Assembly (NCBI GenBank): GCA_014859105.1
Contig: JACUUX010000002.1
Span: 34,118-98,117, forward strand
Length of the DNA: 64,000 nucleotides
Direction: 5' to 3'
From: Nitrospirota bacterium
GTDB taxonomy: Bacteria > Nitrospirota > Thermodesulfovibrionia > Thermodesulfovibrionales > SM23-35
A model generated the notes under the pieces. It was given only the letters and a program-made list of their open reading frames with translations. It ran no database searches and was not told the DNA's origin. Shown here in pieces: positions 44,552 to 58,867 of this stretch (positions are counted from its first letter, which is position 1; the number at the start of each line of letters is the position of its first letter). The translations under genes and the position numbers were made by a program.

Positions 44552-45289
44552 ATGAGACTTATAGATAGAGAAGATCATCAAAAGCTGTATATGCAGCTTT
44601 ATGAAATTTTAAAGAAAAAGATCGAAAATAACGAATGGCCTGTCGGTTCCCAGATTCCCACTGAACAGGAACTCTGCGAAATGTTCAATGTGAGCAGAGC
44701 CACTGTGAGGACCGCTATTCTGGAGCTTGTCAGGCAGGGGTACCTGAAGAGACAACAGGGCAAGGGAACTTTTATCTATAAAAATGTAGTTGCCGAAGGA
44801 TTGACGATGATTACAAGTCTCAAGGAGTTGATGTTGGAGGGAGGAGAAAACTTTTCTATGAATATACTTGCAAGAACAGTAATGATGCCTGTGGATGGCC
44901 TTCATTTACTGCTCGATATTCCCGAAGACAAGCATATCATTTACATAAAGAGAATGTGGTCAGTTGAAAAAAAATCTGTCATATTACAAGAATCGTATAT
45001 CCCTTACCATATCTGCCCCCTGCTACTTGAAGAAGATATTGAAAATAATTCCTTGCTTGAACTTTTCGAAAAAAAATATGGAATAAAGATTACCAATGTA
45101 AAGAACTTTATGGAAATTGCATATATTAAACCAGATGAAGCCAGGATTCTTGGACAATCAGAGAATTCAGCTGCCTTTCTTTTGAAGCAAAAATTCTATT
45201 CGGGTGACACTCTCATTATGTATTCACGCTCAATAAAAGGACCCAACAGATTTGGTTTTTTCATCGAGCTTCAGAGAAAAGCTGCATAA
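44552..45289 (+). CDS. GntR-family (HutC/UTRA subfamily) transcriptional regulator
   Basis: YMQLYEILKKKI..NEW..GSQIPTEQELCEMFNVSRATVRTAILELVRQGYL.RQQGKGTF. A UTRA-like domain follows. Confidence 0.88.
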   Translation: MRLIDREDHQKLYMQLYEILKKKIENNEWPVGSQIPTEQELCEMFNVSRATVRTAILELVRQGYLKRQQGKGTFIYKNVVAEGLTMITSLKELMLEGGENFSMNILARTVMMPVDGLHLLLDIPEDKHIIYIKRMWSVEKKSVILQESYIPYHICPLLLEEDIENNSLLELFEKKYGIKITNVKNFMEIAYIKPDEARILGQSENSAAFLLKQKFYSGDTLIMYSRSIKGPNRFGFFIELQRKAA

Positions 45290-45303: not shown

Positions 45304-45825
45304 ATGTCAGAAGGTAAGGTTGTAAAGGATTTGATGGTCGGTATTTTTGAGTATCCTCATATCCCATACTGGTTTTCTATTAGCCAGGCTATAAGGATTG
45401 TAAAAGTATCTTTTATCAGCACTCAGAAGTTTCCCCAACCAATGGCAATTCTTGTATTTGATGAAAAGTATAATCTCATGGGTACTTTAACCCTCAGGGA
45501 TATATTAAAGGGACTTGAACCAAGATTTTTACAGCCAACCACAAAGGCCCAGGTTCCCGAAGAAAACGAATCAGGATTGTCTCTTATATGGGATTCCCTT
45601 TTTGACACGAAGGCAAAAGAGATGTCAGAGAAACCCGTAAGCGAGGTTATGGTACCTGCCAAGTATTTTGTTGAACCTGAAGACCCTATTACAAAGGCGG
45701 CGTATCTTATGCTTCGTCATAATCTGATACTACTGCCTGTATTAGAGAACAGGAAGAAATTTATTGGTCTGGTAAGAATGGTTGAGATATTTGACGAAAT
45801 ATCCAGTGCGATCTTGAAAGAATAA
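45304..45825 (+). CDS. CBS-domain pair protein
   Basis: 173 aa with two CBS-like units (VKDLM... and VSEVMVPAKYFVEPEDPITKAAYLMLRHNLILLPVLE). Confidence 0.75.
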   Translation: MSEGKVVKDLMVGIFEYPHIPYWFSISQAIRIVKVSFISTQKFPQPMAILVFDEKYNLMGTLTLRDILKGLEPRFLQPTTKAQVPEENESGLSLIWDSLFDTKAKEMSEKPVSEVMVPAKYFVEPEDPITKAAYLMLRHNLILLPVLENRKKFIGLVRMVEIFDEISSAILKE

Positions 45826-45837
45826 GGAGGCGATAAC

Positions 45838-47355
45838 ATGGCAAAAAAAGAGGAGAAAAGGCCTCAGGGTTTACCGGAACCACCACCTGAAATAACAATT
45901 GCAAAACCAAAAATCGCCTTTAACTGGAAAAGGATATTTTTTATTTTATTGGGTTTGACTTTCTTTTTTGTTTTTTATTATATGCCTCCCCTCCCGGATG
46001 CCGTTGACCCGCTGGGAGAACATTTTCCGCTAAGCAAGGAAGGAAAAGCTGCCCTTGCATTATTTTTGCTCGCCGGTACTTGGTGGGTTTTTGAAGTTGT
46101 GCCTATCGGTGCTACAGGCATTGCCATTGGCGTCTTTCAGGCGCTTTTCCTGATCAGACCCGCCAAAGAAGCATTTCGCAGCTTTTTTGACCCTTCGGTC
46201 TGGTTTATTTTTGGCTCCATTGTTATAGGAATGGTCTTTACAAAGACAGGACTTACAAGGCGGCTTGCCTATAAGATGTTAACGTTTTTGGGTGAAAAAA
46301 CGAGCATGATTTACCTCGGATGCTTTGTGCTTACAGCCTTCCTGACACATCTCATGGCGCACACTGCTGTTGCAGCCACAATGTTTCCTCTCCTGCTTGC
46401 AGTATATTCACTTTACGGTGAAGGTGATAAAGTGACTAAATTCGGGAAGGGTCTTTTTATGGGCATGGCTTATATCGCTGGCGCAGGAAGTATTATCACA
46501 CTTCTCGGCGCAGCACGCGGAGTTGTGGCAATAGGATTTTACAACGAGATAACCGGAAAAAATATAACCTTTTTTGAGCTTACAAAGTACATGTTCATTA
46601 TTGGTTGGCTTATGACTTTTCTTCTGTGGGGTTACATGCTTTTAATTTTTAAGCCTGAAAAAAAGACCATACCCGGCCTCAGGGAAAAATCAAAAAAGCT
46701 TTATAAAGAAATGGGGTCTGTTACAGGAAAAGAAATTTTCGCCGCATTAGTTGTTTTCGGGATAATATTTTTTCTCTCACTACAATCATTCATTCCTTCT
46801 CTGAAGCCATTTGATAAATCAGCTGTTTTACTGGTCGGTACGGTTATATTCTTCCTGACGCGGATTCTTACAATCAAAGACCTCGAAGAAATCCCATGGA
46901 ATATCATACTCCTCTTCGGAGGTGCCATGAGCATCGGATTCTGCCTGTGGGAGACAGGTGCCGCAAAATGGCTGGCTATAAACTGGCTCGTCATGTTCCA
47001 GAAGGCAAACTGGTTTATCTTTATATTAGCCATAGCCTTCTTTGTCATGATAATGACTAACTTCATCATGAACGTTGCCGCGATAGCCATTTCACTTCCT
47101 GTTGCGCTTGTTATAGCACCTTACCTCGGCGTATCAGGCGAAGTAGTGTTATTTGCATCACTGGTTACAGCAGGAATGCCGTTCTTGCTATTAGTAGGCG
47201 CTGCTCCAAATGCAATAGCATATGAATCAAAACAGTTTACAGCTGGACAGTTTTTCCTTACAGGAATACCGGCAAGTATTATTTTAATAGCTGTTGTCGG
47301 ATTTGCTGTTGCCATTATATGGCCATTACTCGGGATGTCGGTTATATTGAAATAA
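45838..47355 (+). CDS. DASS/SLC13-type (ArsB/NhaD superfamily) anion permease
   Basis: 505 aa, about 12-14 hydrophobic helices in an internally repeated architecture. Family assigned by overall resemblance only. Confidence 0.6.
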   Translation: MAKKEEKRPQGLPEPPPEITIAKPKIAFNWKRIFFILLGLTFFFVFYYMPPLPDAVDPLGEHFPLSKEGKAALALFLLAGTWWVFEVVPIGATGIAIGVFQALFLIRPAKEAFRSFFDPSVWFIFGSIVIGMVFTKTGLTRRLAYKMLTFLGEKTSMIYLGCFVLTAFLTHLMAHTAVAATMFPLLLAVYSLYGEGDKVTKFGKGLFMGMAYIAGAGSIITLLGAARGVVAIGFYNEITGKNITFFELTKYMFIIGWLMTFLLWGYMLLIFKPEKKTIPGLREKSKKLYKEMGSVTGKEIFAALVVFGIIFFLSLQSFIPSLKPFDKSAVLLVGTVIFFLTRILTIKDLEEIPWNIILLFGGAMSIGFCLWETGAAKWLAINWLVMFQKANWFIFILAIAFFVMIMTNFIMNVAAIAISLPVALVIAPYLGVSGEVVLFASLVTAGMPFLLLVGAAPNAIAYESKQFTAGQFFLTGIPASIILIAVVGFAVAIIWPLLGMSVILK

Positions 47356-47430
47356 AAAGTTGAGGTCACGACGAAGAGGAAACGGATAATTCAGACTGAC
47401 CTCAACATGATTCTTTTGCAAGGAGGCTTT

Positions 47431-48147
47431 ATGGAGTTTGAAGAAGTTATAAAAAAATATTTTCCTGTTATTTTCAGTGAAGTTGACTTTGTCCGAAAAA
47501 CATATAATGCTCTGAAAGAATTCGGGTTTAATGATGATAACAGCATCGCCTCTGTTTGTCTCTGCAGAGACGAGATTTCGCATACTGTCCGTAGCATTAT
47601 AAAGCATATATGGGGTGAAGCCTTTAATCTCTCAAGCCTTGCAGGAATGTTCACCGCAGGCAAGACAGGGCTGAAGGCCGCTATGCACCATGCCCCGAGA
47701 ATTGACGGCAGGGAACATTATGTATATTACGTGATCCCCCATATTGCAATCAACGAGGAGGGAAAGGTAGGTTTCTGCAAACGCAAGGGGATTAAGGCGA
47801 AATCAAGAGCCTGCGGGGCACTTTGCCTCTTTCTCGACGAACTCTCCAATGGGAAGATCTATATCACAATTGATGAAGAAGATATCGAACAGAGCCTTCT
47901 GAAAAGAAGACTTCTCAGGGAGATACCATATGGCCAGGTCCCTGACCTTCTCGATCTCACGAAAATAACCAGGAAGGTTATTCAGGAAGACCTCGAGAAT
48001 GCCCTTGAAAAGGTGGTCGATACGACAAAGAGTGATTATGCAGTGTTGACAGGAATCCAGATACATGCGCCGGACACAAACTACATATGGCCGGCGGATT
48101 CCTATGTGGTAATAAACGGTAAGAAGCAGGAATTAAAAATAGAATAA
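47431..48147 (+). CDS. LCIB-family (beta/theta-type) carbonic-anhydrase-like protein, putative
   Basis: RBS AGGAGG at 47421-26. 238 aa, soluble. EFGFNDDNSIASVCLCRDEI (C45, D47), VIPHIAI (H104) and SRACGAL (C128). The Cys/His/Cys spacing of 59/24 resembles the LCIB zinc triad as I recall it. Confidence 0.5.
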   Translation: MEFEEVIKKYFPVIFSEVDFVRKTYNALKEFGFNDDNSIASVCLCRDEISHTVRSIIKHIWGEAFNLSSLAGMFTAGKTGLKAAMHHAPRIDGREHYVYYVIPHIAINEEGKVGFCKRKGIKAKSRACGALCLFLDELSNGKIYITIDEEDIEQSLLKRRLLREIPYGQVPDLLDLTKITRKVIQEDLENALEKVVDTTKSDYAVLTGIQIHAPDTNYIWPADSYVVINGKKQELKIE

Positions 48148-48160
48148 AGGGAACAGGGCA

Positions 48161-48652
48161 ATGAGATACGTTTTAACCTTTTCTATTCTTTTTATACACT
48201 GGATAGTATGGTCGGGCATATTCGATGCGTATCATCTTTCCCTCGGCGTTATTTCCTGTGGCATTGTTACGTACACTTCGCACAGCCTTTTATTTGAAAG
48301 GAAAGAATTCAGAGCCGTTCACATAACCGAAGTAATACGCTTCGTCAAATACCTGTGCTGGCTTTTTTACCAGATCATTCTGGCCAATATTCATGTCATG
48401 AGAATTTCACTCAGTCCGAGGATGCTTGACCTGATAGATCCGCAAATAATACGATTCAAAACAAAACTGAAAAAGGATATATCCCTTGTAACCTTTGGCA
48501 ACTCGATTACCCTCACACCGGGTACTATTACCATGGTTGTTGAGGAAGGGTATTATTATGTGCATGCCCTGGATACCAAGGTAGCCGAAGGCCTGCCCGG
48601 AGAAATGGAAGATAGGGTTGCACATATCTTCATGGAGGATCGGAATGGATAA
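48161..48652 (+). CDS. mrpE: Mrp/Mnh antiporter subunit E (MbhA-like)
   Basis: 163 aa. N-terminal FILWIVWSG-type membrane helices. ITLTPGT motif typical of MnhE. Confidence 0.75.
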   Translation: MRYVLTFSILFIHWIVWSGIFDAYHLSLGVISCGIVTYTSHSLLFERKEFRAVHITEVIRFVKYLCWLFYQIILANIHVMRISLSPRMLDLIDPQIIRFKTKLKKDISLVTFGNSITLTPGTITMVVEEGYYYVHALDTKVAEGLPGEMEDRVAHIFMEDRNG

Positions 48653-48911
48653 CTTTTTATTGGGCGTCAGCATATTCCTCAGTGTTCTGGTAATCCTTTC
48701 GCTGTACCGCGCCGTCTTTGGCCCTACAGACATCGACAGGATAGTCGGTGTAGGAGCGGTAGGCACAAAAACACTTGTCATACTGATCCTGATGGGATTT
48801 ATATATAACCGGGTCGATATGTTTATTGATATAGCGCTTCTCTATGCGATTATCAACTTTGTCGGTGGATTACTATTCGCACGATTTTTCATGAGAAAAG
48901 GGGTGTTGTAG
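48645..48911 (+). CDS. mrpF: Mrp/Mnh antiporter subunit F (MbhB-like)
   Basis: LYRAVFGPT..DRIVGVGAVGTK...... matches the MnhF pattern. The ATG at 48645 overlaps the mrpE stop (ATGGATAA). Confidence 0.8.
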   Translation: MDNFLLGVSIFLSVLVILSLYRAVFGPTDIDRIVGVGAVGTKTLVILILMGFIYNRVDMFIDIALLYAIINFVGGLLFARFFMRKGVL

Positions 48912-49271
48912 ATGGCTCTCGTTGCGGTTGTGCTCATTTCAATCGGCGTCTTTTTCATGTTTGCAGGAACGATCGGCTTCCTCCGTTTGCCGGACTTCTA
49001 CACCCGGATGCATTCGACCGGCAAAAGCGATACACTGGGGATGGTCCTCGCATTTACCGGACTTGCCCTCTATAATCTGGACCACGGGTTGACGCTTTCG
49101 AGTTTCCTCGTGAGTCTCAAAATCATGTTCATAGCCATTTTCTGGTTCGTGGGCAGTCCCACGGTAACACATACGATCACACGGGCGGCCTTCAAGTCAA
49201 AGATAGCGCCATGGACAAAGGACGGAAGGCATGTCATTGACTGGCCGCCGGATAAGGGGGGATCAAAATGA
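48912..49271 (+). CDS. mrpG: Mrp/Mnh antiporter subunit G (MbhC-like)
   Basis: GTIGFLRLPDFYTRMHSTGKSDTLG is the MnhG signature. Confidence 0.85.
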   Translation: MALVAVVLISIGVFFMFAGTIGFLRLPDFYTRMHSTGKSDTLGMVLAFTGLALYNLDHGLTLSSFLVSLKIMFIAIFWFVGSPTVTHTITRAAFKSKIAPWTKDGRHVIDWPPDKGGSK

Positions 49272-49513
49272 TCTGGCAACTGGATATAATACTTCTCTTG
49301 CTTGTAGTAATATGTGCTGCTGCTGCCATTACGGTGAAGAACCTTTTCAGTGCGACCGTTCTCTTCGGCGCATTCAGCTTTCTGATGTGCATGTTATGGA
49401 CTGAGATGGGCGCTGTTGATGTTGCCTTCACCGAGGCTGCGGTCGGTGCCGGTGTCAGCACCGCATTCTTTATCGCGGCTATCTTTCAAACTTCAAGGAG
49501 GTCAAGAGATTGA
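49268..49513 (+). CDS. DUF4040 / MbhD-like small membrane subunit (MrpA C-terminal-domain equivalent)
   Basis: 81 aa. ...AVDVAFTEAAVGAGVST... is typical of DUF4040. ATGA overlap with mrpG. Confidence 0.7.
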   Translation: MIWQLDIILLLLVVICAAAAITVKNLFSATVLFGAFSFLMCMLWTEMGAVDVAFTEAAVGAGVSTAFFIAAIFQTSRRSRD

Positions 49514-49782
49514 AATTCATAGCCCTAATCGCAACACTCATGACAGGCGCATTACTGATGTATGCAGAGGCAGACTTCCCGGTCTGGGGTGACCCTGATT
49601 CACCGGCGAGCCTTCATTTATCGCCCCGGTATATCGAGAAGGCTATGGAGGAAACTTCTGTGCCGAATATGGTAACCGCGGTCCTTGCTGATTACAGGGG
49701 GTACGACACAATGTTCGAAACAGCAGTCATTTTCTCGGCAGGGATTGCAGTAGTTATGCTGATAAGGAGGCCGCGGCAATGA
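49510..49782 (+). CDS. MbhE-like small membrane subunit (MnhB-related N-terminal piece)
   Basis: 90 aa. NMVTAVLADYRGYDTMFET motif. TTG start overlapping the upstream stop. Confidence 0.7.
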   Translation: MKFIALIATLMTGALLMYAEADFPVWGDPDSPASLHLSPRYIEKAMEETSVPNMVTAVLADYRGYDTMFETAVIFSAGIAVVMLIRRPRQ

Positions 49783-50231
49783 TCCAGAGGACAGCAAATA
49801 TCATCCCCCGTACCATAGCCAGGATCCTAATCCCGGCGATACAGGTGTTTGGTCTCTATGTCATAGCTCATGGACACGGAAGTCCCGGCGGAGGTTTCCA
49901 GGGAGGCTGCATCCTCGCAGCAAGTTTCATCTTAATGACCATAGCTTACGGCCTTGAAGACACGAAGAGGCGCTTCACCGAAAATATGAACAATATCCTT
50001 TCGAGCCTCGGGGTTTTTATTTATGCGCTGACAGGCTGGATGTGCCTCCTTCTCGGCGCCAATTTCCTGGACTACAGCGCCCTGAGCGCAATCTTGCCGG
50101 CTGATCCCGTGAAGGCGCGGTATCTTGGCATGTTTATTATCGAAGTTGGCGTGGGCATTACAGTAATGGCAGTAATGGTGTCTCTTTTTATTGACCTTGT
50201 TACGGGTGGGAAGCATGGGGAGGGACTTTAA
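49779..50231 (+). CDS. mrpB: Mrp/Mnh antiporter subunit B (MbhF-like)
   Basis: 150 aa. GHGSPGGGFQGG is the MnhB signature. Confidence 0.8.
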   Translation: MIQRTANIIPRTIARILIPAIQVFGLYVIAHGHGSPGGGFQGGCILAASFILMTIAYGLEDTKRRFTENMNNILSSLGVFIYALTGWMCLLLGANFLDYSALSAILPADPVKARYLGMFIIEVGVGITVMAVMVSLFIDLVTGGKHGEGL

Positions 50232-50234
50232 TCC

Positions 50235-50612
50235 ATGGAATTCATAATCAGCAAATACAACTACTGGATGTACATAGTTCTTATGATGATAGGTTTTTAT
50301 GCAATGATCGCAAAGCGCAATCTGGTCAAAAAACTCCTCGGACTGAATATCTTCCAGTGGGCCATTATACTGTTCTACGTATCTACAGGAGTCAAAAAGG
50401 GCGCAACTATTCCCATCATAGAGGGCGGGCACGGCGAATTGGTGCACGCGGTGAACGCCGCTCAATACCTGAATCCTCTTCCGCATGTGCTTATGCTCAC
50501 AGCGATTGTTGTCGGTGTGAGCACCACGGGGGTAGCCCTTGCTCTCATAGTTCTGATTTACCGGAGATTCGGGACAGTGGAAGAGGATGAAATATTAGAG
50601 GCTCTGAAATGA
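50235..50612 (+). CDS. mrpC: Mrp/Mnh antiporter subunit C (NuoK-like, MbhG-like)
   Basis: 125 aa, 3 helices. NLVKKLLGLNIF... LTAIVVGVSTTGVALALIV. Confidence 0.8.
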   Translation: MEFIISKYNYWMYIVLMMIGFYAMIAKRNLVKKLLGLNIFQWAIILFYVSTGVKKGATIPIIEGGHGELVHAVNAAQYLNPLPHVLMLTAIVVGVSTTGVALALIVLIYRRFGTVEEDEILEALK

Positions 50613-52111
50613 TGATGGAACATTTGCCCGCCATTATAATAGTTTTTCCGCTGATAATGGCATTTTTAATCAATGTCGCCGGTTGGTGGTCGAAAAAAGC
50701 GTGTTTCTATATGGCGCTCCTTGCGGTCACAGTGAGCTTTCTCGCTTCTCTCGGGATTCTCAATACTGTTCTGCAGAGCGGTACGATCAGTTACAGGTTC
50801 GGAGGTTGGGAGCCGCCGTGGGGCATAGAATATGTCATCGACCACCTGAACGCTTTCATGCTGGTAATCGTCTCGGGGATTACACTTCCTGTTGTGCTCT
50901 ATTCGAAAAAGAGTATCGAGCAGGAATTGCCCAAGAAAATTCCCCAGTTTTACACCCTTTTTACACTTCTCATGATGGGACTTCTGGGGATAACCATTAC
51001 CGGCGATGCATTCAACCTGTACGTGTTGCTGGAAATTGCATCGATAACAGGCTATGCCCTGATTGGACTGGGGGATGAAAAAGCGCCTCTCGCAAGCTTC
51101 AATTATTTGATCATAGGAACTATCGGCGCTTGTTTCTATCTGCTCGGAGTGGGCTATCTCTACATCATGACGGGTTCACTGAATATGGCTGATCTGGCTC
51201 AGCGGCTGCCGGCGCTTTACTCATCCAATGCGGTTATGGCGGCATTTGCATTCTTTATGGTAGGCATCGCCATCAAGATGGCCTTCTTCCCTCTGCACGT
51301 CTGGCTTCCTGATGCATACTCGCATGCTCCTTCGACAGTAAGTGCATACGTCGCCTGCACGATGACAAAGGTCGGCGCATATGTCATGATCCGGATCATG
51401 TTCACCGTGTTCGAACCTTCTTTTTCAATACAACTGCACCCTGTTACTACCATATTCGGCTGGGTTGCAGCAGCTGCGATGATGTACGGATGTATCCTTG
51501 CCGTTGCACAGAATGACCTGAAGAGGATGCTCTGCTATATCATTATCGCCGAGGTGGGATATATCGTAATGGGCATAAGTGCAGCTAATCGCATGGGATT
51601 CACCGGCGCAGTCCTCCATATCTTAAATGATGCCTTTATGATGGCATGCCTGTTCCTGGTAGTGGGAGCCATATATTATAAAACCGGGGCAAAAACTATT
51701 GGAGAATATCGGGGCCTGTTCAAAAAGATGCCTTTTACCTCGATGAGTTTTGCCGTTGGAGCGCTCTCAGTCGTTGGGGTTCCACCGACGTGCGGTTTCT
51801 TCAGCAAATGGTACCTGGTTTTGGGGACCATAAACGCAGAGCAATGGGTTTTCGCTGCTGCGCTCCTTGCGAGCAGCCTGCTAAGCGCCATTGTGTTTTT
51901 CAGGGTCCTGCAGAATATGTTTTTTGCACCCGCTGCATCTTCTTCTCACGACCAGGGGAGTGAGTCGCATGTTCAGGAGAAGAGGCATGAAGCACCGGGA
52001 AGCATGCTCATCCCGATATTCGTGACGATTGCAGGGATACTCCTGCTTGGTGTTTTCAGCGGTCAGATAATCGAGATGATAATTCAATATACCGTTCCAG
52101 AGGGATTCTGA
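50609..52111 (+). CDS. mrpD: Mrp subunit D / NuoM-N-type antiporter-like subunit, copy 1
   Basis: 500 aa, PF00361-type. LLEIASITGYALI (TM5 Glu). IAIKMAFFPLHVWLPDAYSHAP (TM7 Lys). Confidence 0.85.
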   Translation: MMMEHLPAIIIVFPLIMAFLINVAGWWSKKACFYMALLAVTVSFLASLGILNTVLQSGTISYRFGGWEPPWGIEYVIDHLNAFMLVIVSGITLPVVLYSKKSIEQELPKKIPQFYTLFTLLMMGLLGITITGDAFNLYVLLEIASITGYALIGLGDEKAPLASFNYLIIGTIGACFYLLGVGYLYIMTGSLNMADLAQRLPALYSSNAVMAAFAFFMVGIAIKMAFFPLHVWLPDAYSHAPSTVSAYVACTMTKVGAYVMIRIMFTVFEPSFSIQLHPVTTIFGWVAAAAMMYGCILAVAQNDLKRMLCYIIIAEVGYIVMGISAANRMGFTGAVLHILNDAFMMACLFLVVGAIYYKTGAKTIGEYRGLFKKMPFTSMSFAVGALSVVGVPPTCGFFSKWYLVLGTINAEQWVFAAALLASSLLSAIVFFRVLQNMFFAPAASSSHDQGSESHVQEKRHEAPGSMLIPIFVTIAGILLLGVFSGQIIEMIIQYTVPEGF

Positions 52112-52122
52112 CAGGAGAGGCG

Positions 52123-53634
52123 ATGGAAATCATTCATTCTTCGAGACCGGCTTTAGCAATACTGGTATCTTTGATCGCAGCATTTCTCATCCTTATTACA
52201 GGAGAAAGGTCGAGGAATCTCAGAGAATTCTGGACTATCCTCGCCTCGGTTGTCAAATTTTCGGTCGTCCTTTCGATGGTGCCGTTTATACTGGAAGGCA
52301 AAGTAATCGAATATACCGTTCTCTCAATCTCGCCGGGCCTTTCGGTCCAGTTCAGGGTCGACGCATTGGGAATAATTTTCGGACTGACGGCATCGTTCCT
52401 CTGGATTATTACTTCTTTCTATTCCATAGGATATGTTAGGTCACTGAAAGAGCACGCACAGACAAGATATTTTGTCTGCTTCGCTGTTGCACTGTCTGCA
52501 ACCATGGGCGTTGCATTTTCCGCGAATATGTTTACGACGTTCCTCTTTTATGAAATCATTACCATATGTACGTTTCCGCTTGTTGCACACAAAGAAACTC
52601 CTGAAGCCATACAGGGCGCAAGGAAATATCTGACATATCTTCTGGGCACGTCCATTGCATTTCAGTTATTGGCAGTATTTATGACCTACCATGTTGCCGG
52701 AACCCTGGATTTCAGGTATGAGGGCTTATTGAACGGAGCCCGCGGCAATGCGACCGATATGCTCCTGATAATCATATTCATACTCTACATGGCGGGAATT
52801 ACCAAGGCCGCCATGATGCCGCTCCATGGATGGCTCCCTGCCGCCATGGTCGCACCAACACCGGTCAGCGCACTCCTTCACGCCGTAGCAGTCGTCAAAA
52901 CAGGGGTCTTTGTGGTAGTCAAGGTTGTTCTCCACATTTTCGGGATTAATCTTCTTACTCAGCTCGGCCTCGGCACTGCGCTCGCATATTTCGCTTGCGT
53001 TACCATAGTTGTCGCTTCTGTAATTGCCCTGACGCAGGATAATTTAAAGCGGAGACTCGCCTACTCCACCATAAGTCAACTCTCCTATGTTATTCTCGGA
53101 GTTGCACTCCTGACCCCATCAGGCATTACCGGCAGCATCATGCACATTACTATTCATGCGTTCGGCAAAATAACTCTCTTCTTCACTGCAGGCGCCATAT
53201 ATGTGGCAACACATAAAACAAATGTGAGTGAACTTGACGGGATTGGCAGGCAGATGCCATTCACCATGGGAGCCTTTACCCTGGGCGCTCTTTCCATGAT
53301 AGGGGTACCTCCACTCGGCGGCTTCATCAGTAAATGGTATCTGGCCTTAGGTGCTATCGAAGCTGAACAACTCCCAGTAATTATAGTATTGGCTGCGAGC
53401 ACGCTCCTGAATGCCGGATATTTTTTGCCCATCGTATATGCTGCTTTCTTCAAAGAGCCTGCTCCTGAGCACCATCATAATCCAGGGCAGAAATCAAAGA
53501 TACAGGAAGCTCCTGTACTAATGGTAGTACCACTCGTCCTTACCGGCATTGGGGCATTTGTATTATTTCTTGCACCAACATTTTTTCTTGATATTGCAAG
53601 AATTGCTTTGCATGCAGTCGTAGGAGGAAATTAA
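52123..53634 (+). CDS. mrpD: Mrp subunit D / NuoM-N-type antiporter-like subunit, copy 2
   Basis: 503 aa. FLFYEIITICTFPLV. GITKAAMMPLHGWLPAAMVAPTPVSALLH. Confidence 0.85.
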   Translation: MEIIHSSRPALAILVSLIAAFLILITGERSRNLREFWTILASVVKFSVVLSMVPFILEGKVIEYTVLSISPGLSVQFRVDALGIIFGLTASFLWIITSFYSIGYVRSLKEHAQTRYFVCFAVALSATMGVAFSANMFTTFLFYEIITICTFPLVAHKETPEAIQGARKYLTYLLGTSIAFQLLAVFMTYHVAGTLDFRYEGLLNGARGNATDMLLIIIFILYMAGITKAAMMPLHGWLPAAMVAPTPVSALLHAVAVVKTGVFVVVKVVLHIFGINLLTQLGLGTALAYFACVTIVVASVIALTQDNLKRRLAYSTISQLSYVILGVALLTPSGITGSIMHITIHAFGKITLFFTAGAIYVATHKTNVSELDGIGRQMPFTMGAFTLGALSMIGVPPLGGFISKWYLALGAIEAEQLPVIIVLAASTLLNAGYFLPIVYAAFFKEPAPEHHHNPGQKSKIQEAPVLMVVPLVLTGIGAFVLFLAPTFFLDIARIALHAVVGGN

Positions 53635-53635
53635 G

Positions 53636-53764
53636 ATGCACAAAGAAGAAGGTGCAGAATTAGATGAACTAAAGCATGAAGCAAAACCAGGATATAGAAC
53701 TGTATTTTTTGTTTCGGTTATCGTAGCTGCTGTATATCTTGGTGCAATTTTTTGCTTTGGTTAA
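53636..53764 (+). CDS. 42-aa single-pass membrane peptide (below the ORF-track size cut-off)
   Basis: My translation: MHKEEGAELDELKHEAKPGYRTVFFVSVIVAAVYLGAIFCFG. The ATG lies 1 nt after the mrpD2 stop and is preceded by GGAGGAAA. The next gene starts 11 nt later. Confidence 0.55.
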   Translation: MHKEEGAELDELKHEAKPGYRTVFFVSVIVAAVYLGAIFCFG

Positions 53765-53775
53765 AGGAGTTCTAA

Positions 53776-54018
53776 ATGGGAAAAGAGTATTTTTTTGATA
53801 AGCCCAAGAATGTGAAGAGACTTTTACTGGGGTTTTACATATTCCTTTTCGTGATCTTAATTGCTGAATTTTTTATCCATAAACATATCTTTTTCCGATG
53901 GGAAAGGTATCCCTTCTTCTACGCGATGTTCGGATTCGTAGCCTTTGTCGGATTGATTATCGCAGCAAAATATATTCTGCGCCCTGTTATTAAGAGAAGA
54001 GAGGATTATTATGATTAA
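53776..54018 (+). CDS. 80-aa two-helix membrane protein, unknown family
   Basis: RBS AGGAG at 53765-69. Hydrophobic segments LLLGFYIFLFVILIAEFFI and FFYAMFGFVAFVGLIIAAKYIL. Its end overlaps the next gene by 8 nt. Confidence 0.6.
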   Translation: MGKEYFFDKPKNVKRLLLGFYIFLFVILIAEFFIHKHIFFRWERYPFFYAMFGFVAFVGLIIAAKYILRPVIKRREDYYD

Positions 54019-55843
54019 TACCGTCCCTCCGGCAGCGATATTCATTATAGGGGCATTATTTATCCCACTTTTTAAAGGGAAATTAAAAAGTGTCTACCTT
54101 TTACTCTTACCAATAGTCGGGTTTATAAACCTTATCAATATACCGGAGGGTTCACACTGGGCAATCGGATTTCTCGATTACCAATTGGTTTTTGGTCAAG
54201 TTGACAGACTCAGTCTGTTTTTCGGATACATCTATCACCTCATCTCATTTATCGCTATTCTCTATTCCATCCACGTAAAGGATGACTTTCATCATATGGC
54301 GTCCATCTTTTACGCAGGTGCTGCTATAGGCGTTGTATTTGCGGGAGATTTAATATCACTCTTTATATTCTGGGAGATTATGGCCCTTGCTGCAACATAC
54401 CTCGTATGGGCCCGGAAAACAAAGGAATCATCGGGCGCGGGAATGAGATATCTCCTTGTCCATCTCTTTGGAGGTCTCTGTCTTCTTGCAGGGATAGTAA
54501 TACATGTCTTAGGAACAGGCTCCGTTGAGTTCGGATATTTAGGATTAAATGGGTTAGGAACGCTGCTCATATTCATTGGTTTCGGTATTAATTGCGCATG
54601 GCCCGGTCTCCACGGATGGCTTACTGATGCGTATCCGCAGACAACAGCAACCGGTGCAGTATTTATGTGGACATTTACAACAAAAACAGCCGTTTACGTC
54701 CTTGCACGAGCATACCCCGGCACTGAAATTCTGATCTGGATCGGTGCTATCATGACCGTATTCCCCATATTTTTTGCTGTCGTTGAAAATGACCTGAGAA
54801 GGGTTCTCTCGTACAGCCTTATCAACCAGCTTGGCTACATGGTATGTGGAATCGGCATCGGGACACATCTGTCTCTTAACGGTACGGTGTCTCATGTCTT
54901 CTGTCATATTCTCTACAAGGCCCTTCTTGTCATGTCTATGGGTGCAGTGCTACATCGGACAGGTAAAATCAAGTGCACAGAACTGGGAGGACTTTACAAA
55001 AGTATGCCCTTAACCACCATATTCTGTATCGTTGGTGCTGCATCAATATCTGCATTTCCCCTTTTCAGCGGTTTCATCAGCAAATCGATGGTCGTTGAGG
55101 CATCGGCAACAGGAGGAATGGTAGTGATATGGCTTATGCTCCTTTTTGCCTCAGTTGGCGTCCTTGAACATGCCGGCATCAAGGTGCCTTTTCACGCCTT
55201 TTTCTCACACGACTCGGGAATTCGAACGAAAGAAGCCCCTCTTCATATGCTCATTGCAATGGGAATAACTGCTTTTCTGTGCATCTTTGTCGGTGTGCTC
55301 CCCGGTCCTTTATATAGTCTTCTCCCTTACCCTGTGAACTTCGAGCCATATACGGCATCTCATGTTGTTACGACATTGCAATTACTTAGTTTTGGAGCGC
55401 TTGCCTATATATTTCTACTTTTGTCAGGCATTTTCCCGGCAGAAATGAGGGCTACAAATCTGGATGTTGACTGGTTCTATAGAAAACCAGTTGCTGCCTT
55501 CCTGTGGTTTTGTAATGTTCCTTTAACTGTATTCAGAAATGGCATACAAACCTTCTCGTCCAGAGCTATAAAAGCAATTTCAAAATTTGCTACAGACCCA
55601 CTCATTGTTCCCGAAACAATTTTTAAAGGCATACAACTCGGAGTACTCAAAGCCCTGAGAGGTACACCGGATGAAACCACTCCAAAGATAGCCGCCCTGG
55701 AGTTCGAAATTAACCGGCTCATAAAAATGAAAGAAACGGGAAGGTATTACGGGACTGAAACGCCACGGAGGCCCGTTGGATTAGCTGTCCTCGTTTCTTT
55801 TGCGCTGATATTCTTGTATTTGATCGTTTATATGATCGTATGA
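54011..55843 (+). CDS. NuoL/MrpA-type antiporter-like subunit with a C-terminal lateral-helix-like extension and terminal TM anchor
   Basis: 610 aa. LFIFWEIMALAATYLVW (TM5 Glu). FGINCAWPGLHGWLTDAYP, where Asn replaces the TM7 Lys. C-terminal amphipathic stretch of about 100 aa, then LAVLVSFALIFLYLIVYMIV. Confidence 0.8.
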   Translation: MINTVPPAAIFIIGALFIPLFKGKLKSVYLLLLPIVGFINLINIPEGSHWAIGFLDYQLVFGQVDRLSLFFGYIYHLISFIAILYSIHVKDDFHHMASIFYAGAAIGVVFAGDLISLFIFWEIMALAATYLVWARKTKESSGAGMRYLLVHLFGGLCLLAGIVIHVLGTGSVEFGYLGLNGLGTLLIFIGFGINCAWPGLHGWLTDAYPQTTATGAVFMWTFTTKTAVYVLARAYPGTEILIWIGAIMTVFPIFFAVVENDLRRVLSYSLINQLGYMVCGIGIGTHLSLNGTVSHVFCHILYKALLVMSMGAVLHRTGKIKCTELGGLYKSMPLTTIFCIVGAASISAFPLFSGFISKSMVVEASATGGMVVIWLMLLFASVGVLEHAGIKVPFHAFFSHDSGIRTKEAPLHMLIAMGITAFLCIFVGVLPGPLYSLLPYPVNFEPYTASHVVTTLQLLSFGALAYIFLLLSGIFPAEMRATNLDVDWFYRKPVAAFLWFCNVPLTVFRNGIQTFSSRAIKAISKFATDPLIVPETIFKGIQLGVLKALRGTPDETTPKIAALEFEINRLIKMKETGRYYGTETPRRPVGLAVLVSFALIFLYLIVYMIV

Positions 55844-55970: not shown

Positions 55971-57728
55971 ATGTCAGAACATAACGAACAACAAGAAGAA
56001 AAAAACAACAAAACTAGGATTTATAAGTTTCTTAGAGTCTTATTCCACCCGCGCGATTTTTTGGGTATTCTGAGCGAAGACCGGTATAAAAGTCTTAAAA
56101 TAAGGATAGTCCTCCTCGATGCTGTACTTTCCCTGCTTCCCCTCTTTATTGTAGTTACGATAAGTTATTTCTGGTTCCAGCAGATATTGAAGGATGATTT
56201 CAAGAATCAACTGAAGTGGGAGCTTGAGAATACCAAACAGTCCATAGAGTTTTTTTTGGAAGAAAGACTCTCCATACTAAGGTTCATCACTTCGACCTAT
56301 ACCTATGAGCAGTTGTCGGATCAAAGGACCCTGTTTGACATTTTCACCAAATTCAAGCGGGAATTCCCCGGCCTTGCCGATATCGGAGTGATAGACGCCA
56401 ATGGTATTCAGCGGACATATTCAGGACCCTATCGCCTGGCTGGAGCGGATTATTCCAATCAGACCTGGTTCAATGAGATTGTCGTCCGCTCTTCCAATTT
56501 AAGCGATGTTTTTATGGGCTTCAGAAAAATACCGCATTTCGCAATCGCGGTAAAAAGGGAAGTCCCGGACAAGGGCACTTTCTGGATTTTGAGGGCCACC
56601 ATTGATATGAAAATATTGCAGAAATATGCTTCAGCCGTCAATATCAGGGAGGATGACGATGTTTTTATTATCAACCGGGAAGGGGTTCTCCAGACCCCTT
56701 CCCGATTCCACGGCAATGTGCTCGAACAATATAAAGAAAATTTTTCCTTCCGCGAGGATAACATATCCATAAAGGAAGCGGGGCAATCAGAAGGCACATG
56801 CGACATATGCGGCTATGCACCTATAAAAAACTCTCCCTGGGTTTTAGTGGCCGTTATCCGGTCAAGTCCTTATGCGAAGATACCTAATATATTCAGAAAC
56901 GAGCTTTTGTTTATAACGATTATCAGTATTTTCTTCAGCATCGCTGTTACAATCGCTCTGGTGCAAACCGTTGTAAACCGGATAAAAAAAGCCGACCAGG
57001 CAAGGGAAGTGGCAATTGCCGAGACCGAGCATGCCAGCAAAATGGCATCGATCGGCAGACTCGCAGCAGGGGTTGCGCACGAAATCAATAATCCCCTTGC
57101 TATTATCAACGAAAAGGCCGGCCTTATGAAAGACATCCTTGAGGGATCCCGGGATCTGCAGCAAAAAAGGGAGAAATTTCTGAGCTTGATCGGCGGGATA
57201 TTCGACAGCGTCAACCGTTGCCGCACTGTCACCCACCGTCTCCTGGGATTTTCGAGGAGGATGGATATCAGCCATGATACGATAGACATAAATGATGCGC
57301 TTAATGAGGTCATCGGGTTTCTGGAGAAAGAGATTATTTACAGAAACATCCGCCTGGATCTTGATCTGAGAAAAGATATTCCAAAGGTTGTGACCGATAA
57401 AGGACAGGTGCAGCAGGTATTCCTGAATATTATTAATAATGCGATCGATGCTGTTCAAGAAAAAGGCCTCATTAAGATTTCTTCATATTCCAAAGATGAG
57501 CATTTCGTCAGAGTATCGATAAAAGACAACGGAAGCGGGATCCCGCGGGATAAACTTAAACATATTTTTGAACCATTCTATACTACAAAAGGGAAAGGAA
57601 CAGGCCTCGGACTCTCTATCTCCTATGGGATAGTTCAGCGGTTGGGAGGATCAATCCATGTGGAAAGCGAAATCAATAAAGGAACGAACTTTTTTGTTGA
57701 TATCCCCATCCGGTCTGAGACTGTGTAA
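55971..57728 (+). CDS. Sensor histidine kinase (TM - Cache-like domain - TM - HisKA - HATPase)
   Basis: H-box AAGVAHEINNPLAII. N-box FLNIINNAIDAV. G1 IKDNGSGIP. G2 GTGLGLSISYGIV. ATG at 55971 preferred over the track start at 55929. Confidence 0.88.
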   Translation: MSEHNEQQEEKNNKTRIYKFLRVLFHPRDFLGILSEDRYKSLKIRIVLLDAVLSLLPLFIVVTISYFWFQQILKDDFKNQLKWELENTKQSIEFFLEERLSILRFITSTYTYEQLSDQRTLFDIFTKFKREFPGLADIGVIDANGIQRTYSGPYRLAGADYSNQTWFNEIVVRSSNLSDVFMGFRKIPHFAIAVKREVPDKGTFWILRATIDMKILQKYASAVNIREDDDVFIINREGVLQTPSRFHGNVLEQYKENFSFREDNISIKEAGQSEGTCDICGYAPIKNSPWVLVAVIRSSPYAKIPNIFRNELLFITIISIFFSIAVTIALVQTVVNRIKKADQAREVAIAETEHASKMASIGRLAAGVAHEINNPLAIINEKAGLMKDILEGSRDLQQKREKFLSLIGGIFDSVNRCRTVTHRLLGFSRRMDISHDTIDINDALNEVIGFLEKEIIYRNIRLDLDLRKDIPKVVTDKGQVQQVFLNIINNAIDAVQEKGLIKISSYSKDEHFVRVSIKDNGSGIPRDKLKHIFEPFYTTKGKGTGLGLSISYGIVQRLGGSIHVESEINKGTNFFVDIPIRSETV

Positions 57729-57739
57729 GGAGGAAAATT

Positions 57740-58117
57740 ATGTCACAAACCAAGGTTTTGCTGGTAGATGACGAAATCGAATTCGTTTCGGCCCTCGCAG
57801 AAAGACTGCAATTGCGCAATTACAATGTAAAAACCGGCCATACCGCCCTAGAAGCAATGGGTTTTATCCATCAGTTCATGCCCGATGTGGTCGTACTCGA
57901 TCTGAAGATACCTGGGATGGACGGCCTGGAGGCACTGAAGACTATCAAAAAATTGGACCCAACTATCGAAGTCATTATGCTGACAGGGCACGGAGATGTC
58001 CACAGCGTGGAAGAAGGGATGAAGAGCGGCGCTTTCGAATACATTATGAAGCCGATCGACATAGGTGAACTGACGTCCAAAATAGATAAGGCGAAAAAGA
58101 AACGAATTAATGTGTAG
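57740..58117 (+). CDS. Receiver-only response regulator
   Basis: 125 aa. VLLVDDE, VVVLDLKIPGMDG, LTGHG and KP. Confidence 0.9.
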   Translation: MSQTKVLLVDDEIEFVSALAERLQLRNYNVKTGHTALEAMGFIHQFMPDVVVLDLKIPGMDGLEALKTIKKLDPTIEVIMLTGHGDVHSVEEGMKSGAFEYIMKPIDIGELTSKIDKAKKKRINV

Positions 58118-58135
58118 CTTTTATGGAGGTAAGGT

Positions 58136-58801: not shown

Positions 58802-58867
58802 TTTGCCGTAAGGCTTGACAACATCGAGGTTTATTGTTAAATTTAAACAATCCCAAAAAGGATTTTG

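Follow-up and report, generated by a model that had tools for sequence, protein, structure and literature searches.

Does the soluble, carbonic anhydrase-like protein encoded just ahead of an Mrp antiporter cluster serve that cluster as its catalytic partner, in the manner of DAB or CupA, as a preliminary description of this DNA proposed, or does it belong with other neighbours? We followed up this question across the window (the whole stretch of 64,000 nt that was analysed) and in surveys of related loci. Our tentative answer is that the LCIB-type protein forms part of a modular ion-transport cassette that may combine bicarbonate symport, carbonic anhydrase and an Mrp Na+/H+ circuit.

The LCIB-family gene and its metal site

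47431-48147, plus strand: LCIB-family (theta/beta-type) carbonic anhydrase, 238 aa, soluble (Pfam, PDB, AF2, Foldseek)

The ORF is as first described, with AGGAGG at 47421-47426. A second candidate start, an ATG at 47407, lies further upstream; 47431 is the better start because homologues have their N-terminus at the MEFEE-equivalent position. The family assignment, at first only suspected, is borne out: Pfam PF18599 matches with 1.4e-56, Chlamydomonas LCIC (5b5x) and LCIB (5k5w) match with 4.7e-46 and 2.1e-44, and the AF2 model (pLDDT 96.5) superposes on LCIB 5k5w with TM 0.82/0.86 in Foldseek. The residues C45-R-D47-E, H104 and C128 are unchanged across 42 homologues (32-81% identity), among which D47, H87 and R118 are kept as well. 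In a HMMER alignment to PtLCIB4, after a 13-residue construct offset (set from the S47R and H88A entry names), C45/H104/C128 correspond to C46/H102/C126, which are reportedly the zinc ligands (Jin et al. 2016). The gene encodes a full LCIB-family beta-carbonic anhydrase of the algal type with an intact metal site, and the protein is presumably active as an enzyme.

In the algal stroma LCIB hydrates CO2, acting as a carbonic anhydrase in vivo (PMC10473226). Recombinant Chlamydomonas LCIB and LCIC, which share Arg46 with the 238-aa protein, lack carbonic anhydrase activity in vitro (PMC5876011), an observation that speaks against the cassette as we propose it.

Upstream genes and the DASS-like permease

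41896-44448, minus strand: PEP-synthase-like protein, 850 aa, PPDK_N ATP-grasp plus PEP-utilizers swivel domain (Pfam)
44433-44504, plus strand: two promoter-like sites, TTGACA-17-TATACT, 11/12 matches each, 43 bp apart, 5' of gntR
44552-45289, plus strand: GntR/HutC-type regulator, GntR HTH plus UTRA effector domain (Pfam, NCBIfam)
45304-45825, plus strand: stand-alone CBS-domain protein, 173 aa (Pfam CBS), 12 nt before the DASS gene
45838-47355, plus strand: divergent DASS/SLC13-like permease, 505 aa (Pfam PF00939, PF03600)
47359-47408, plus strand: within the 75 nt between DASS and LCIB, a perfect inverted repeat of 10 bp, GTTGAGGTCA ... TGACCTCAAC

The same-strand gene string begins with gntR (44552), and the LCIB gene is its fifth member. 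The two sites 5' of gntR, candidates by consensus match only, are the only strong sigma-70-like plus-strand matches ahead of the string, so the claim that the LCIB gene heads an Mrp operon as its catalytic partner is not supported. Judged only by its spacing and by a lack of promoter or terminator sites that fit a consensus, the string is probably co-transcribed and may be controlled by the GntR-family regulator.

The conserved core of the cassette consists of gntR, the stand-alone CBS protein, the divergent DASS-type Na+/anion symporter and the cytoplasmic LCIB-type zinc carbonic anhydrase. We surveyed 80 species genomes centred on LCIB, with an LCIB ORF called in 75 loci: a CBS gene and a DASS-like gene of about 505 aa lie directly upstream of LCIB on the same strand in 48 of the 75, 38 of 80 loci keep gntR ahead of CBS-DASS, and the CBS-permease pair is found in 53 of 80 (gap 9-15 nt); the CBS protein is presumed to be the regulatory partner of the permease. 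The PEP-synthase-like gene, divergent from gntR, adjoins the cassette in at least 27 of 80 LCIB loci. NCBIfam PEP synthase models (score below cut-off) cover only residues 121-575 of its product, matches to PDB PEP synthases are limited to residues ~121-575, and the C-terminal ~275 aa have no match to the canonical PEP/pyruvate-binding domain.

In a second sample, centred on DASS (six long contigs), the gene following the DASS orthologue codes in all six for LCIB or for a remote LCIB-like protein that shares its Cys/Asp/His/His/Arg/Cys set, and the PEP-synthase-like gene is present in five; in the sixth the matching ORF is in two pieces.

The known substrates of DASS carriers are di- and tricarboxylates, sulfate and phosphate. 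The permease of the window scores 188.3 against TIGR00785, under the cut-off of 198.6, and its alignment with VcINDY shows other residues at the carboxylate and Na+ motifs: SNT1 is replaced by A174-H175-T176, the HPin tip SPPN by A-A-R227-G and SNT2 by M411-N412-V413. These AHT, R and MNV residues are found in 46-47 of 47 LCIB-adjoining orthologues, and a second permease subfamily that accompanies LCIB and Mrp retains the same His and Arg. The substrate is probably bicarbonate; we know of no experiment or characterised relative that links this subfamily to it.

The inverted repeat in the spacer folds as RNA at -18.5 kcal/mol (z = -1.97; 10 of 200 shuffles are as stable) and is absent as a conserved element from related loci; it is weak and probably non-functional.

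The Mrp cluster as an optional module

48161-50612, plus strand: Mrp small subunits (Pfam PF01899, PF04066, PF03334, PF13244, PF20501, PF04039, PF00420), namely
48161-48652, plus strand: MrpE
48645-48911, plus strand: MrpF
48912-49271, plus strand: MrpG
49268-49513, plus strand: MbhD
49510-49782, plus strand: MbhE
49779-50231, plus strand: MnhB (MrpB)
50235-50612, plus strand: MrpC/NuoK-like
50609-52111, plus strand: first MrpD-type antiporter-like subunit, 500 aa (PF00361)
52123-53634, plus strand: second MrpD-type antiporter-like subunit, 503 aa (PF00361; NCBIfam NF006236 above cut-off)
53636-53764, plus strand: small membrane ORF, 42 aa
53776-54018, plus strand: small membrane ORF, 80 aa
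54011-55843, plus strand: third antiporter-like subunit, 610 aa, MrpA/NuoL-like (PF00361), last gene of the string

Pfam and NCBIfam agree with the preliminary description that this is a complete Mrp, of 12 genes with three antiporter-like subunits, and gene calls return the same gaps of 0-11 nt or overlaps of 4-8 nt. MbhD and MbhE are counterparts of the C-terminal part of MrpA; E142, K223, H230, K254 and K400 of the first MrpD-type subunit are invariant in the alignment; the 610-aa subunit scores 725 bits against NF009310 (cut-off 564) and has a C-terminal extension with a hydrophobic segment at its end. The 42-aa and 80-aa ORFs have no Pfam match; tblastn finds them in 29 other loci and in 45 loci, respectively, and their position is kept in Mrp clusters of the window's subtype.

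The original proposal had LCIB docked on Mrp, whose three antiporter-like subunits would drive one-way CO2 hydration. In its favour, only 13 nt separate the LCIB stop (48147) from mrpE (48161), with no promoter- or terminator-like consensus site between them. The junction recurs: mrpE directly follows LCIB in the window's order in seven other species genomes, LCIB and mrp genes adjoin on two metagenome contigs, and one Actinomycetota MAG (L066) keeps the linkage despite a changed order, CBS-DASS-Mrp-LCIB; the adjacency is therefore not a one-off. The linkage is sparse: Mrp is tightly linked to LCIB in only 8 of 80 LCIB loci and in none of the six DASS-centred loci. The steady neighbour of LCIB is CBS-DASS. 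A third survey covered 30 loci of the window's Mrp subtype in which 1.5 kb or more of sequence precedes mrpE, and LCIB is nearby in three (adjacent in two; DASS-LCIB-permease-Usp-Mrp in one).

Other observations also count against a docked LCIB. The LCIB-mrpE gap ranges from 13 to 99 nt. The closest LCIB relative (81% identical, 238 aa) has no Mrp nearby, lengths are equal with and without Mrp, and Mrp-linked members occupy at least six separate positions in the LCIB tree, where permease-linked ones lie between them. The 238-aa protein has no hydrophobic segment, and a Pfam search finds no extra domain and no DabA (PF10070) or CupA-type domain or signature; where LCIB occurs in multi-domain proteins, its companions are ankyrin, EF-hand or amine-oxidase domains and in no case a transporter. 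We consider such a machine very improbable.

The slot after LCIB is variable. In other genomes it holds a permease resembling MamN/ArsB/NhaD (NCBIfam), with or without its own CBS/Usp gene, or the 12-gene Mrp, or both; a second permease lies downstream of LCIB in 26 loci of the LCIB-centred survey. Every module of the cassette is optional somewhere: for example, L010 and L021 have LCIB without DASS, and L099 has DASS-Mrp without LCIB.

Alternatively, two independent units might merely abut, LCIB with CBS-DASS on one side and, on the other, a general Na+-resistance operon that repeatedly landed there or was retained without functional coupling. Closely related cassettes do differ in the presence of Mrp, and the remaining Mrp-centred loci, most of the 30, lack LCIB, DASS and CBS-permease genes. 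The similarities of DASS and LCIB are discordant (90% and 57% identity to the window's proteins in L093, 68% and 80% in L009), which shows frequent shuffling. But the junction is found in at least 10 loci on the same strand and in the same position with differing LCIB and DASS types, it is rearranged in another phylum, four Mrp-centred loci join a CBS-permease unit straight to Mrp without LCIB (gntR in three of the four), and the short gap in the window has no promoter-like site. We therefore judge mere abutment improbable.

Inorganic carbon, ion homeostasis and known systems

55971-59790, plus strand: dCache histidine kinase, three single-domain response regulators and a 221-aa protein without family (Pfam)
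59867-63235, minus strand: cytidylate-kinase-like/receiver fusion (406 aa) and SulP-STAS anion carrier (707 aa) (Pfam)

The signalling genes of 55971-59790 are frequent companions of the cassette: 20 LCIB or LCIB-like loci have a relative of the 221-aa protein, and seven have one of the kinase. The DASS and SulP (61112-63235, minus strand) carriers first named as neighbours are both recognized by Pfam, and in a Thermodesulfobacteriota MAG (L174) the set of SulP, cytidylate-kinase-like receiver, dCache kinase and receiver adjoins an LCIB-like gene. The Usp, CBS and two-component genes would suggest a stress or pH role equally well as one in carbon.

Under the cassette reading, the permease, in which a conserved His175 and Arg227 occupy the place of the dicarboxylate SNT motifs, would take up a small anion with Na+, most likely bicarbonate, and the CBS protein may relay a nucleotide signal to its gating. 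LCIB would equilibrate HCO3- + H+ with CO2 in the cytoplasm. Mrp (elsewhere the NhaD-like permease) would move Na+ out and H+ in, closing the Na+ circuit and replacing the proton spent in dehydration, so that inorganic carbon entry would be driven by the proton-motive force. Against this, CO2 raised in the cytoplasm would leak away unless a diffusion barrier kept it in.

The cassette may instead serve Na+/pH homeostasis or stress, with carbon incidental, an alternative that we rate as rather unlikely. Here the permease would return Na+ with another anion, such as sulfate, Mrp or the NhaD-like permease would swap Na+ for H+, and LCIB would merely speed CO2/HCO3- buffering of proton fluxes, as in animal carbonic anhydrase-exchanger 'metabolons'. 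Many two-component genes, besides Usp and CBS, lie beside the cassette. Seven Nitrospira-type loci have a Na_Ca_ex (CAX-like, Ca2+/H+-type) exchanger ahead of LCIB in place of DASS, and the common denominator of LCIB partners would therefore be H+-coupled cation exchange. DASS proteins are candidate sulfate carriers in sulfate reducers (PMC5840216). The hosts include Thermodesulfovibrionales, Thermodesulfobacterium and Desulfobacterales; that many host lineages are sulfate reducers tells against bicarbonate. However, neither SNT motif is present in the permease (in comparison with VcINDY only), and the DASS-LCIB pair is also found in MAGs labelled Aquicultor-type Actinomycetota, Rokubacteria and Acidobacteriota, presumably not sulfate reducers. 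The tight one-to-one pairing of DASS with a carbonic anhydrase, even with the remote CA-like protein as a substitute, points to an anion that is substrate or product of the enzyme rather than to generic buffering. A role in inorganic carbon is the most coherent theme.

We found no published description of such a cassette. Pairing of PF00361 subunits with carbonic anhydrase-like proteins is an established theme (PMC13144422), and a docked LCIB-Mrp complex would have been a fourth independent version of it beside DabAB, CupA-NDH-1 and MpsAB. H+ import by a typical Mrp, however, opposes CO2 hydration instead of pulling it. Recycling of Na+ by Mrp for the DASS symporter, which the preliminary description had offered as its alternative, fits better than a hydration machine. 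That alternative also allowed for a 238-aa protein with no link to carbon; the protein is, however, the partner of the DASS carrier. Mrp is an optional add-on of the cassette and not a CO2-pumping complex around LCIB.

The 238-aa protein and a remote relative

The region around the 238-aa ORF (LCIB, numbered from MEFEE) has the following features, in window positions:

41896-44448, (-), PEP-synthase-like gene (ATP-grasp and swivel-His domain), divergent from the gntR string
44552-45289, (+), gntR
45304-45825, (+), stand-alone CBS gene
45838-47355, (+), DASS-like permease gene (505 aa)
47431-48147, (+), LCIB
48161-55843, (+), 12-gene Mrp cluster, mrpE first

The preliminary description had proposed LCIB as a candidate carbonic anhydrase (CA) heading an antiporter operon, and its account of the ORF, the ribosome-binding site (AGGAGG at 47421-47426), the 13-nt gap to mrpE, the spacing of the 12 genes and the residues was confirmed in every detail. 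The protein is soluble, and a search for a hydrophobic segment found none. The anticipated profile match was obtained: residues 18-227 match Pfam family LCIB_C_CA (PF18599) over profile positions 5-222 of 223, with an E-value of 1.4e-56 and 191.8 bits (cut-off 25). Against solved structures of the family (PDB entries 5k5w, 5b5x and 5b5y, covering Chlamydomonas LCIB/LCIC and diatom PtLCIB3/4), the E-values are 4.7e-46 for LCIC, 2.1e-44 for Chlamydomonas LCIB and ∼1e-13 for PtLCIB4.

C45, H104 and C128 align with residues 59, 115 and 139 of the PtLCIB4 chain, which correspond to C46, H102 and C126 after a 13-residue construct offset (derived from how the mutant entries S47R and H88A are named); we take these three residues to be the zinc triad, the metal-ligand assignment reportedly being that of Jin et al. 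in 2016. In the same alignment, His87 is paired with His88, and Arg46 with Ser47, the residue mutated to Arg. Across 42 homologues (32-81% identity) C45, R46, D47, H104, R118 and C128 do not vary, so that the conservation expected of the Cys/His/Cys positions is indeed found, and E48 and H87 are nearly invariant (H87 is at least 90% conserved). The active-site Asp after the first Cys and the important His and Arg are thus present as D47, H87 and R118; PtLCIB4 His88 and CrLCIB His162/Arg194 are the residues reported as important (PMC5876011). The AlphaFold (AF2) model, built on the alignment of the 42 homologues, has a pLDDT of 96.5, and its top eight PDB matches by Foldseek are all LCIB-family entries (TM 0.75-0.89; 0.82-0.86 for LCIB itself), followed by canonical beta-carbonic anhydrases at TM ∼0.4, which bears out the proposed fold. 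By profile, ligand register and fold, the 238-aa protein is an LCIB-family (PF18599, theta/beta-type) carbonic anhydrase. Interconversion of CO2 and HCO3- is its predicted activity. Algal LCIB works as a CA in vivo according to the part of PMC10473226 that cites Kasili et al. 2023, but recombinant CrLCIB/LCIC, which carry the same Arg46 variant, were inactive in vitro (PMC5876011).

The family is large, with 1333 clusters at 50% identity (E<=1e-3). Ten long LCIB-domain proteins were scanned and contain LCIB in tandem or ankyrin, EF-hand or amine-oxidase domains; none of the ten has a transporter or Mrp domain fused to LCIB, and we therefore dropped domain fusions as a functional clue. LCIB is split into two ORFs at three homologous loci from other genomes or metagenome contigs (L168:8618-9335, L169:8605-9322 and L076; coordinates are locus-internal), probably by assembly frameshift, real pseudogenes being the alternative.

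A second family, annotated as hypothetical proteins (353-386 aa; 40 clusters, mainly from Desulfobacterales/Thermodesulfobacteriota MAGs), has no Pfam match. Profile-profile comparison (hhalign) aligns it with LCIB in register (probability 81.6%, E 1.1e-5): its invariant C52-P-D54-E55, H93, H104, R119 and C129 match C45-R-D47-E48, H87, H104, R118 and C128 of LCIB. All eight significant PDB matches of its predicted structure (Foldseek) are LCIB-family entries. Given the in-register alignment and the LCIB-only structure matches, this unannotated family is, as judged from profiles and a structural model, a remote LCIB homologue. Three of the following four genes occupy the LCIB slot after a DASS-like gene:

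Genes of the LCIB-like family (locus-internal coordinates)
L173, 8649-9797
L171, 2573-3634
L174, 7001-8152
L175, 7001-8161

The permease, the Mrp cluster and the flanking genes

LCIB is counted as the fifth gene of a 17-gene same-strand string, since gntR, CBS and the DASS-like permease gene precede it on the same strand with gaps of 14, 12 and 75 nt. A consensus scan found strong promoter-like matches only upstream of gntR, and neither an internal promoter nor a terminator between DASS, LCIB and mrpE; terminator-like sites are rarer in the string region than in shuffled sequence. In the AT-rich region between gntR and the divergent PEP-synthase-like gene, at 44433-44504, a promoter-like element (TTGACA-17-TATACT) occurs in two nearly identical copies 43 bp apart. 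An inverted repeat (47359-47408) was considered as an attenuator and rejected, as it folds only marginally better than shuffles and lacks conservation. An Rfam scan of the whole window gave nothing beyond three ordinary housekeeping features, each distant from the cluster: tRNA-Ser(GGA) followed by the small SRP RNA at 9850-10061, and a TPP riboswitch at 19710-19830 upstream of thiC (19947-21233).

The PEP-synthase-like protein has ∼120 extra N-terminal residues, and its C-terminal ∼275 aa match no PEP/pyruvate-binding domain. Many loci keep the gene next to the cassette, some of them with two copies. We considered it as a sign of a C4-type CA/PEP cycle and set this aside, because the C-terminal domain is non-canonical and nothing ties the gene to carboxylation.

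The permease matches Pfam Na_sulph_symp (PF00939) above its cut-off (147.9 bits), with CitMHS nearly equal, and scores 188.3 against TIGR00785, below the cut-off of 198.6. Its best solved relatives are VcINDY-type (E 2e-27 to VcINDY), and the alignment, over residues 72-494, implies the two-hairpin architecture of VcINDY/SLC13. Of the two Ser-Asn-Thr motifs and the Na+/carboxylate hairpin tips of VcINDY, however, only the second tip (AAPN) is retained: the first SNT is replaced by A174-H175-T176, the first hairpin tip by A-A-R227-G (225-228) and the second SNT by M411-N412-V413. These AHT, AARG and MNV replacements are kept in 46-47 of the 47 permease orthologues adjoining LCIB, and a second permease subfamily (25% identical), found with LCIB and Mrp, has His and Arg at the equivalent places. 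The permease appears to be a divergent DASS member. With these conserved replacements of the SNT motifs and of the first hairpin tip, a dicarboxylate appears unlikely as its substrate; a small oxyanion is plausible. A sulfate-transporter survey of sulfate reducers gave no subfamily-level match to the permease.

mrpE starts 13 nt after the LCIB stop, and successive genes of the 12-gene cluster lie 0-11 nt apart or overlap by 4-8 nt, in the order MrpE, MrpF, MrpG, MbhD, MbhE, MnhB, MrpC, two MrpD-type subunits, a 42-aa ORF, an 80-aa ORF and a 610-aa MrpA/NuoL-like subunit. The full subunit set (A, as N- and C-terminal parts, B, C, D, E, F and G) is therefore present in one cluster, with matches to PF01899, PF04066, PF03334, PF13244, PF20501, PF04039 and PF00420 and three PF00361 subunits, and two large subunits exceed NCBIfam equivalog cut-offs (NF009310, NF006236). 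In the 500-aa antiporter-like subunit E142, K223, H230, K254 and K400 are invariant in seven orthologues; as in the NuoL/M/N family, these are presumably residues of the ion-path helices. By gene content, the cluster is an Mrp (CPA3) multisubunit antiporter, with predicted Na+/H+ antiport. The two small membrane ORFs between the second MrpD and the 610-aa subunit (53636-53764, 42 aa; 53776-54018, 80 aa) have no family match; they are kept at the same position in 29 and 45 other Mrp loci, respectively, and are probably unrecognised subunits of this Mrp subtype.

After the mrp genes, 55971-63235 encodes a dCache histidine kinase, single-domain response regulators, a 221-aa protein without family assignment, a cytidylate-kinase-like/receiver fusion and a SulP-STAS protein. 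This set is syntenic with L174:1-6651, a stretch of a Thermodesulfobacteriota MAG next to the LCIB-like gene (55% identity for the cytidylate-kinase-like receiver protein). Because Pfam matches the window SulP in two separate segments, the best of them stopping at residue 233 (position 223 of the 380 in the profile), the membrane domain may hold an insertion. SulP (61112-63235) was considered as the main partner and rejected, since it recurs loosely: three loci have ∼31% identical matches at a distance of 7 kb, and L174 is a further case.

Gene neighbourhoods and the link to Mrp

We surveyed gene neighbourhoods from three sides. The LCIB-centred scan (one genome per species, with a profile from 11 closer sequences) collected 80 loci, 75 of them with a called LCIB ORF. 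The hosts are mostly Thermodesulfovibrionales and other Nitrospirota; others are Thermodesulfobacterium isolates, Actinomycetota, Acidobacteriota, Rokubacteria and Desulfobacterales. Two cultured strains, Thermodesulfobacterium thermophilum DSM 1276 and T. hveragerdense DSM 12571, have the DASS-LCIB pair (L055, L057). By protein comparison and ORF clustering, a DASS-like gene of ∼505 aa is the same-strand upstream neighbour in 48 of the 75 loci, and among the 80 loci CBS is found upstream of LCIB/DASS in 53 and gntR in 38. A second permease, resembling MamN/ArsB/NhaD, lies downstream of LCIB in 26 loci, with or without its own CBS. A whole Mrp cluster directly follows LCIB in seven loci, and an Actinomycetota MAG (L066) has the order CBS-DASS-Mrp-LCIB, giving tight LCIB-Mrp linkage in eight of 80 loci; in one Nitrospinota MAG, Mrp is 6.5 kb from a split LCIB. 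The closest LCIB homologue (81% identity, 238 aa) keeps the PPDK-like gene, GntR, CBS, DASS and LCIB, which are followed by CBS and a permease, with no Mrp. In seven Nitrospira/Nitrospirales loci (L077-L078, L080, L082-L084 and L086), Na_Ca_ex, a CAX-like cation/H+ exchanger, is directly upstream of LCIB (∼1 kb) instead of DASS; downstream come a gene for a heavy-metal P-type ATPase and several small membrane ORFs.

For the Mrp-centred survey, metagenomes were scanned with an alignment of the first MrpD, and 30 of the 80 loci found have at least 1.5 kb upstream of mrpE. LCIB is adjacent in two of these 30, the order DASS-LCIB-permease-Usp-Mrp occurs in one, and a CBS-permease unit is joined to Mrp without LCIB in four (three with gntR); in the remaining loci none of LCIB, DASS, CBS-permease or gntR was found near mrpE. 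In the DASS-centred sample (six long contigs with 72-82% identical DASS orthologues), the next gene is LCIB in four and a 353-382-aa hypothetical protein in two, and Mrp lies within 7 kb of the permease gene in none of the six. Because the hypothetical protein is itself distantly related to LCIB, a CA-like protein with the predicted zinc triad follows the permease in all six cases.

Permease and LCIB do not keep pace with each other in sequence identity. Identity to the window DASS is 90% in L093 and 81% in L050/L053, yet the LCIBs of these loci are only 55-57% identical; in L008/L009 the LCIBs are 80-81% identical to that of the window and DASS only 63-68%. Such discordance suggests that the cassette is a mosaic, made up of exchanged modules or of paralogues. 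A gene for a PF05635 '23S rRNA-intervening sequence protein' is found inside the cassette, between DASS/LCIB and the next gene, in three loci (L020:10764-11153, L025 and L038).

The preliminary description had read LCIB and Mrp as a further machine for vectorial CO2 hydration. Like DabAB (DAB), CupA/B-NDH-1MS and MpsAB, the window has a CA-like zinc protein beside PF00361 subunits and an inorganic-carbon theme. But its CA belongs to another family (PF18599, its only family match, and not DabA PF10070 or CupA); no cluster gene has a DabA or CupA/ChpX domain by Pfam; and the partner is a whole Mrp including all small subunits, not one dedicated subunit. The pairing is optional: the predicted recurrence of mrp linkage holds in that Mrp is found at the same position elsewhere, but it is confined to eight of 80 LCIB, three of 30 Mrp and zero of six DASS-centred loci, and in a neighbour-joining tree Mrp-linked LCIBs fall at at least six separate positions among permease-linked ones, i.e. 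they are polyphyletic. We consider a fourth vectorial-CA machine built on Mrp and LCIB very improbable. Since linkage is ∼10% in either direction, LCIBs with and without Mrp do not differ, DabA-/CupA-type domains are absent and such Mrp clusters are mostly found elsewhere, LCIB is, on this genomic evidence, neither a subunit of Mrp nor its obligate partner. Even so, LCIB and Mrp are not together by accident: their linkage occupies the same position in cassettes of different LCIB/DASS types and survives rearrangement in another phylum, and Mrp also joins CBS-permease units without LCIB. In other loci the slot after LCIB is taken by an ArsB/NhaD-like permease.

A proposed modular cassette and its known counterparts

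The simplest account is a modular cassette, with a putative Na+/anion symporter and a cytoplasmic CA as its core and a Na+/H+ exchanger added. Na+ and HCO3- would enter together through the DASS-like permease (bicarbonate being the candidate anion), the CA would turn HCO3- and H+ into CO2 in the cytoplasm, and Mrp would send Na+ out and bring H+ in; with bicarbonate as the anion, the chemistry would close. The chief rival reading is a Na+/pH-stress cassette: the permease would carry another anion (e.g. sulfate), with the CA merely buffering proton fluxes. In its favour are the Usp, CBS and two-component genes, as well as the CAX-LCIB pairs of Nitrospira; against it is the strict pairing of permease and CA. 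More broadly, the His175/Arg227 permeases may be an unrecognised Na+-coupled bicarbonate family that forms, with LCIB or LCIB-like CA, CBS and an exchangeable Mrp or ArsB/NhaD-like module, a pmf-driven inorganic-carbon uptake system widespread in anaerobic subsurface Nitrospirota/Desulfobacterota/Actinomycetota; we put this forward tentatively, as less likely than not.

If true, LCIB, a key and still debated part of the mechanism by which algae concentrate CO2 (the CCM), would descend from a transporter-linked bacterial enzyme. Bacterial LCIBs are numerous (over a thousand 50%-identity clusters) and systematically encoded with ion carriers, which offers a testable setting for the ancestral role. 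Should bicarbonate prove to be the substrate of the permease, the short list of transporters for carbon-capture and crop-CCM engineering would gain a new family, and the permease would show how anaerobic chemolithoautotrophs in bicarbonate-rich groundwater get CO2. The LCIB family, Mrp antiporters, DASS carriers and CA-transporter pairing as a theme are already known. A classification table and reviews list the LCIB/theta-CA family only for diatoms and (green) algae, and our literature search found no paper on LCIB with Mrp in the present sense, with DASS, or in Nitrospirota or Thermodesulfovibrio, and no study on bacterial LCIB homologues or their gene context. The analysis corrects the idea of a fourth 'vectorial CA' on Mrp and uncovers an unannotated LCIB-like family; moderate interest remains in the cassette itself, the unusual permease site and this remote family.

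Compared with Chlamydomonas LCIB/LCIC and PtLCIB3/4, the window protein has the same full-length homology, fold, Cys-His-Cys triad, Asp, His88-equivalent and Arg, and likewise, as in the algal LCIB proteins, an Arg directly after the first Cys. It differs in its bacterial origin and minimal length, the 238-aa domain lacking the N- and C-terminal extensions of the algal proteins; its gene sits in a transporter operon, outside any pyrenoid or LCIB/LCIC hetero-complex context, and its activity is predicted only. The antiporter cluster has all Mrp (CPA3) families in an order like that of the MBH/MBS membrane arm (E-F-G-(A C-terminal part as MbhD/MbhE)-B-C-D), but its antiporter-like subunits number three and it has two additional conserved small membrane ORFs; it lacks a hydrogenase or NuoH-like module and is attached to a transporter-CA cassette.

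SulP carriers fused to or encoded with beta-carbonic anhydrases were reportedly described by Felce and Saier in 2004. These and BicA are the SulP counterparts, and the pairing of a CA with an anion carrier has served to infer bicarbonate transport. A SulP-STAS gene is present in the window neighbourhood and beside the LCIB-like gene of L174, but the tightly paired carrier of the window belongs to the DASS/ion-transporter superfamily, SulP being only loosely linked.

In cyanobacteria, an Mrp-like mnh operon belongs to the regulon (NdhR/CcmR) of the Na+/HCO3- symporter SbtA/SbtB and has been proposed to take care of Na+ extrusion for this symporter (PMC4390856); this is the precedent for the modular-cassette scheme. 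The proposed logic is the same in both: an anion symporter coupled to Na+, a nucleotide-sensing regulator, small and soluble, encoded next to it, and a multisubunit Na+ extruder of the Mrp type. The likeness is without homology, as by Pfam the permease matches only Na_sulph_symp and CitMHS (DASS-like) and the small protein only CBS, not the PII-like SbtB; and unlike its cyanobacterial counterpart, the window operon includes a CA and its hosts are anaerobic, non-photosynthetic bacteria.
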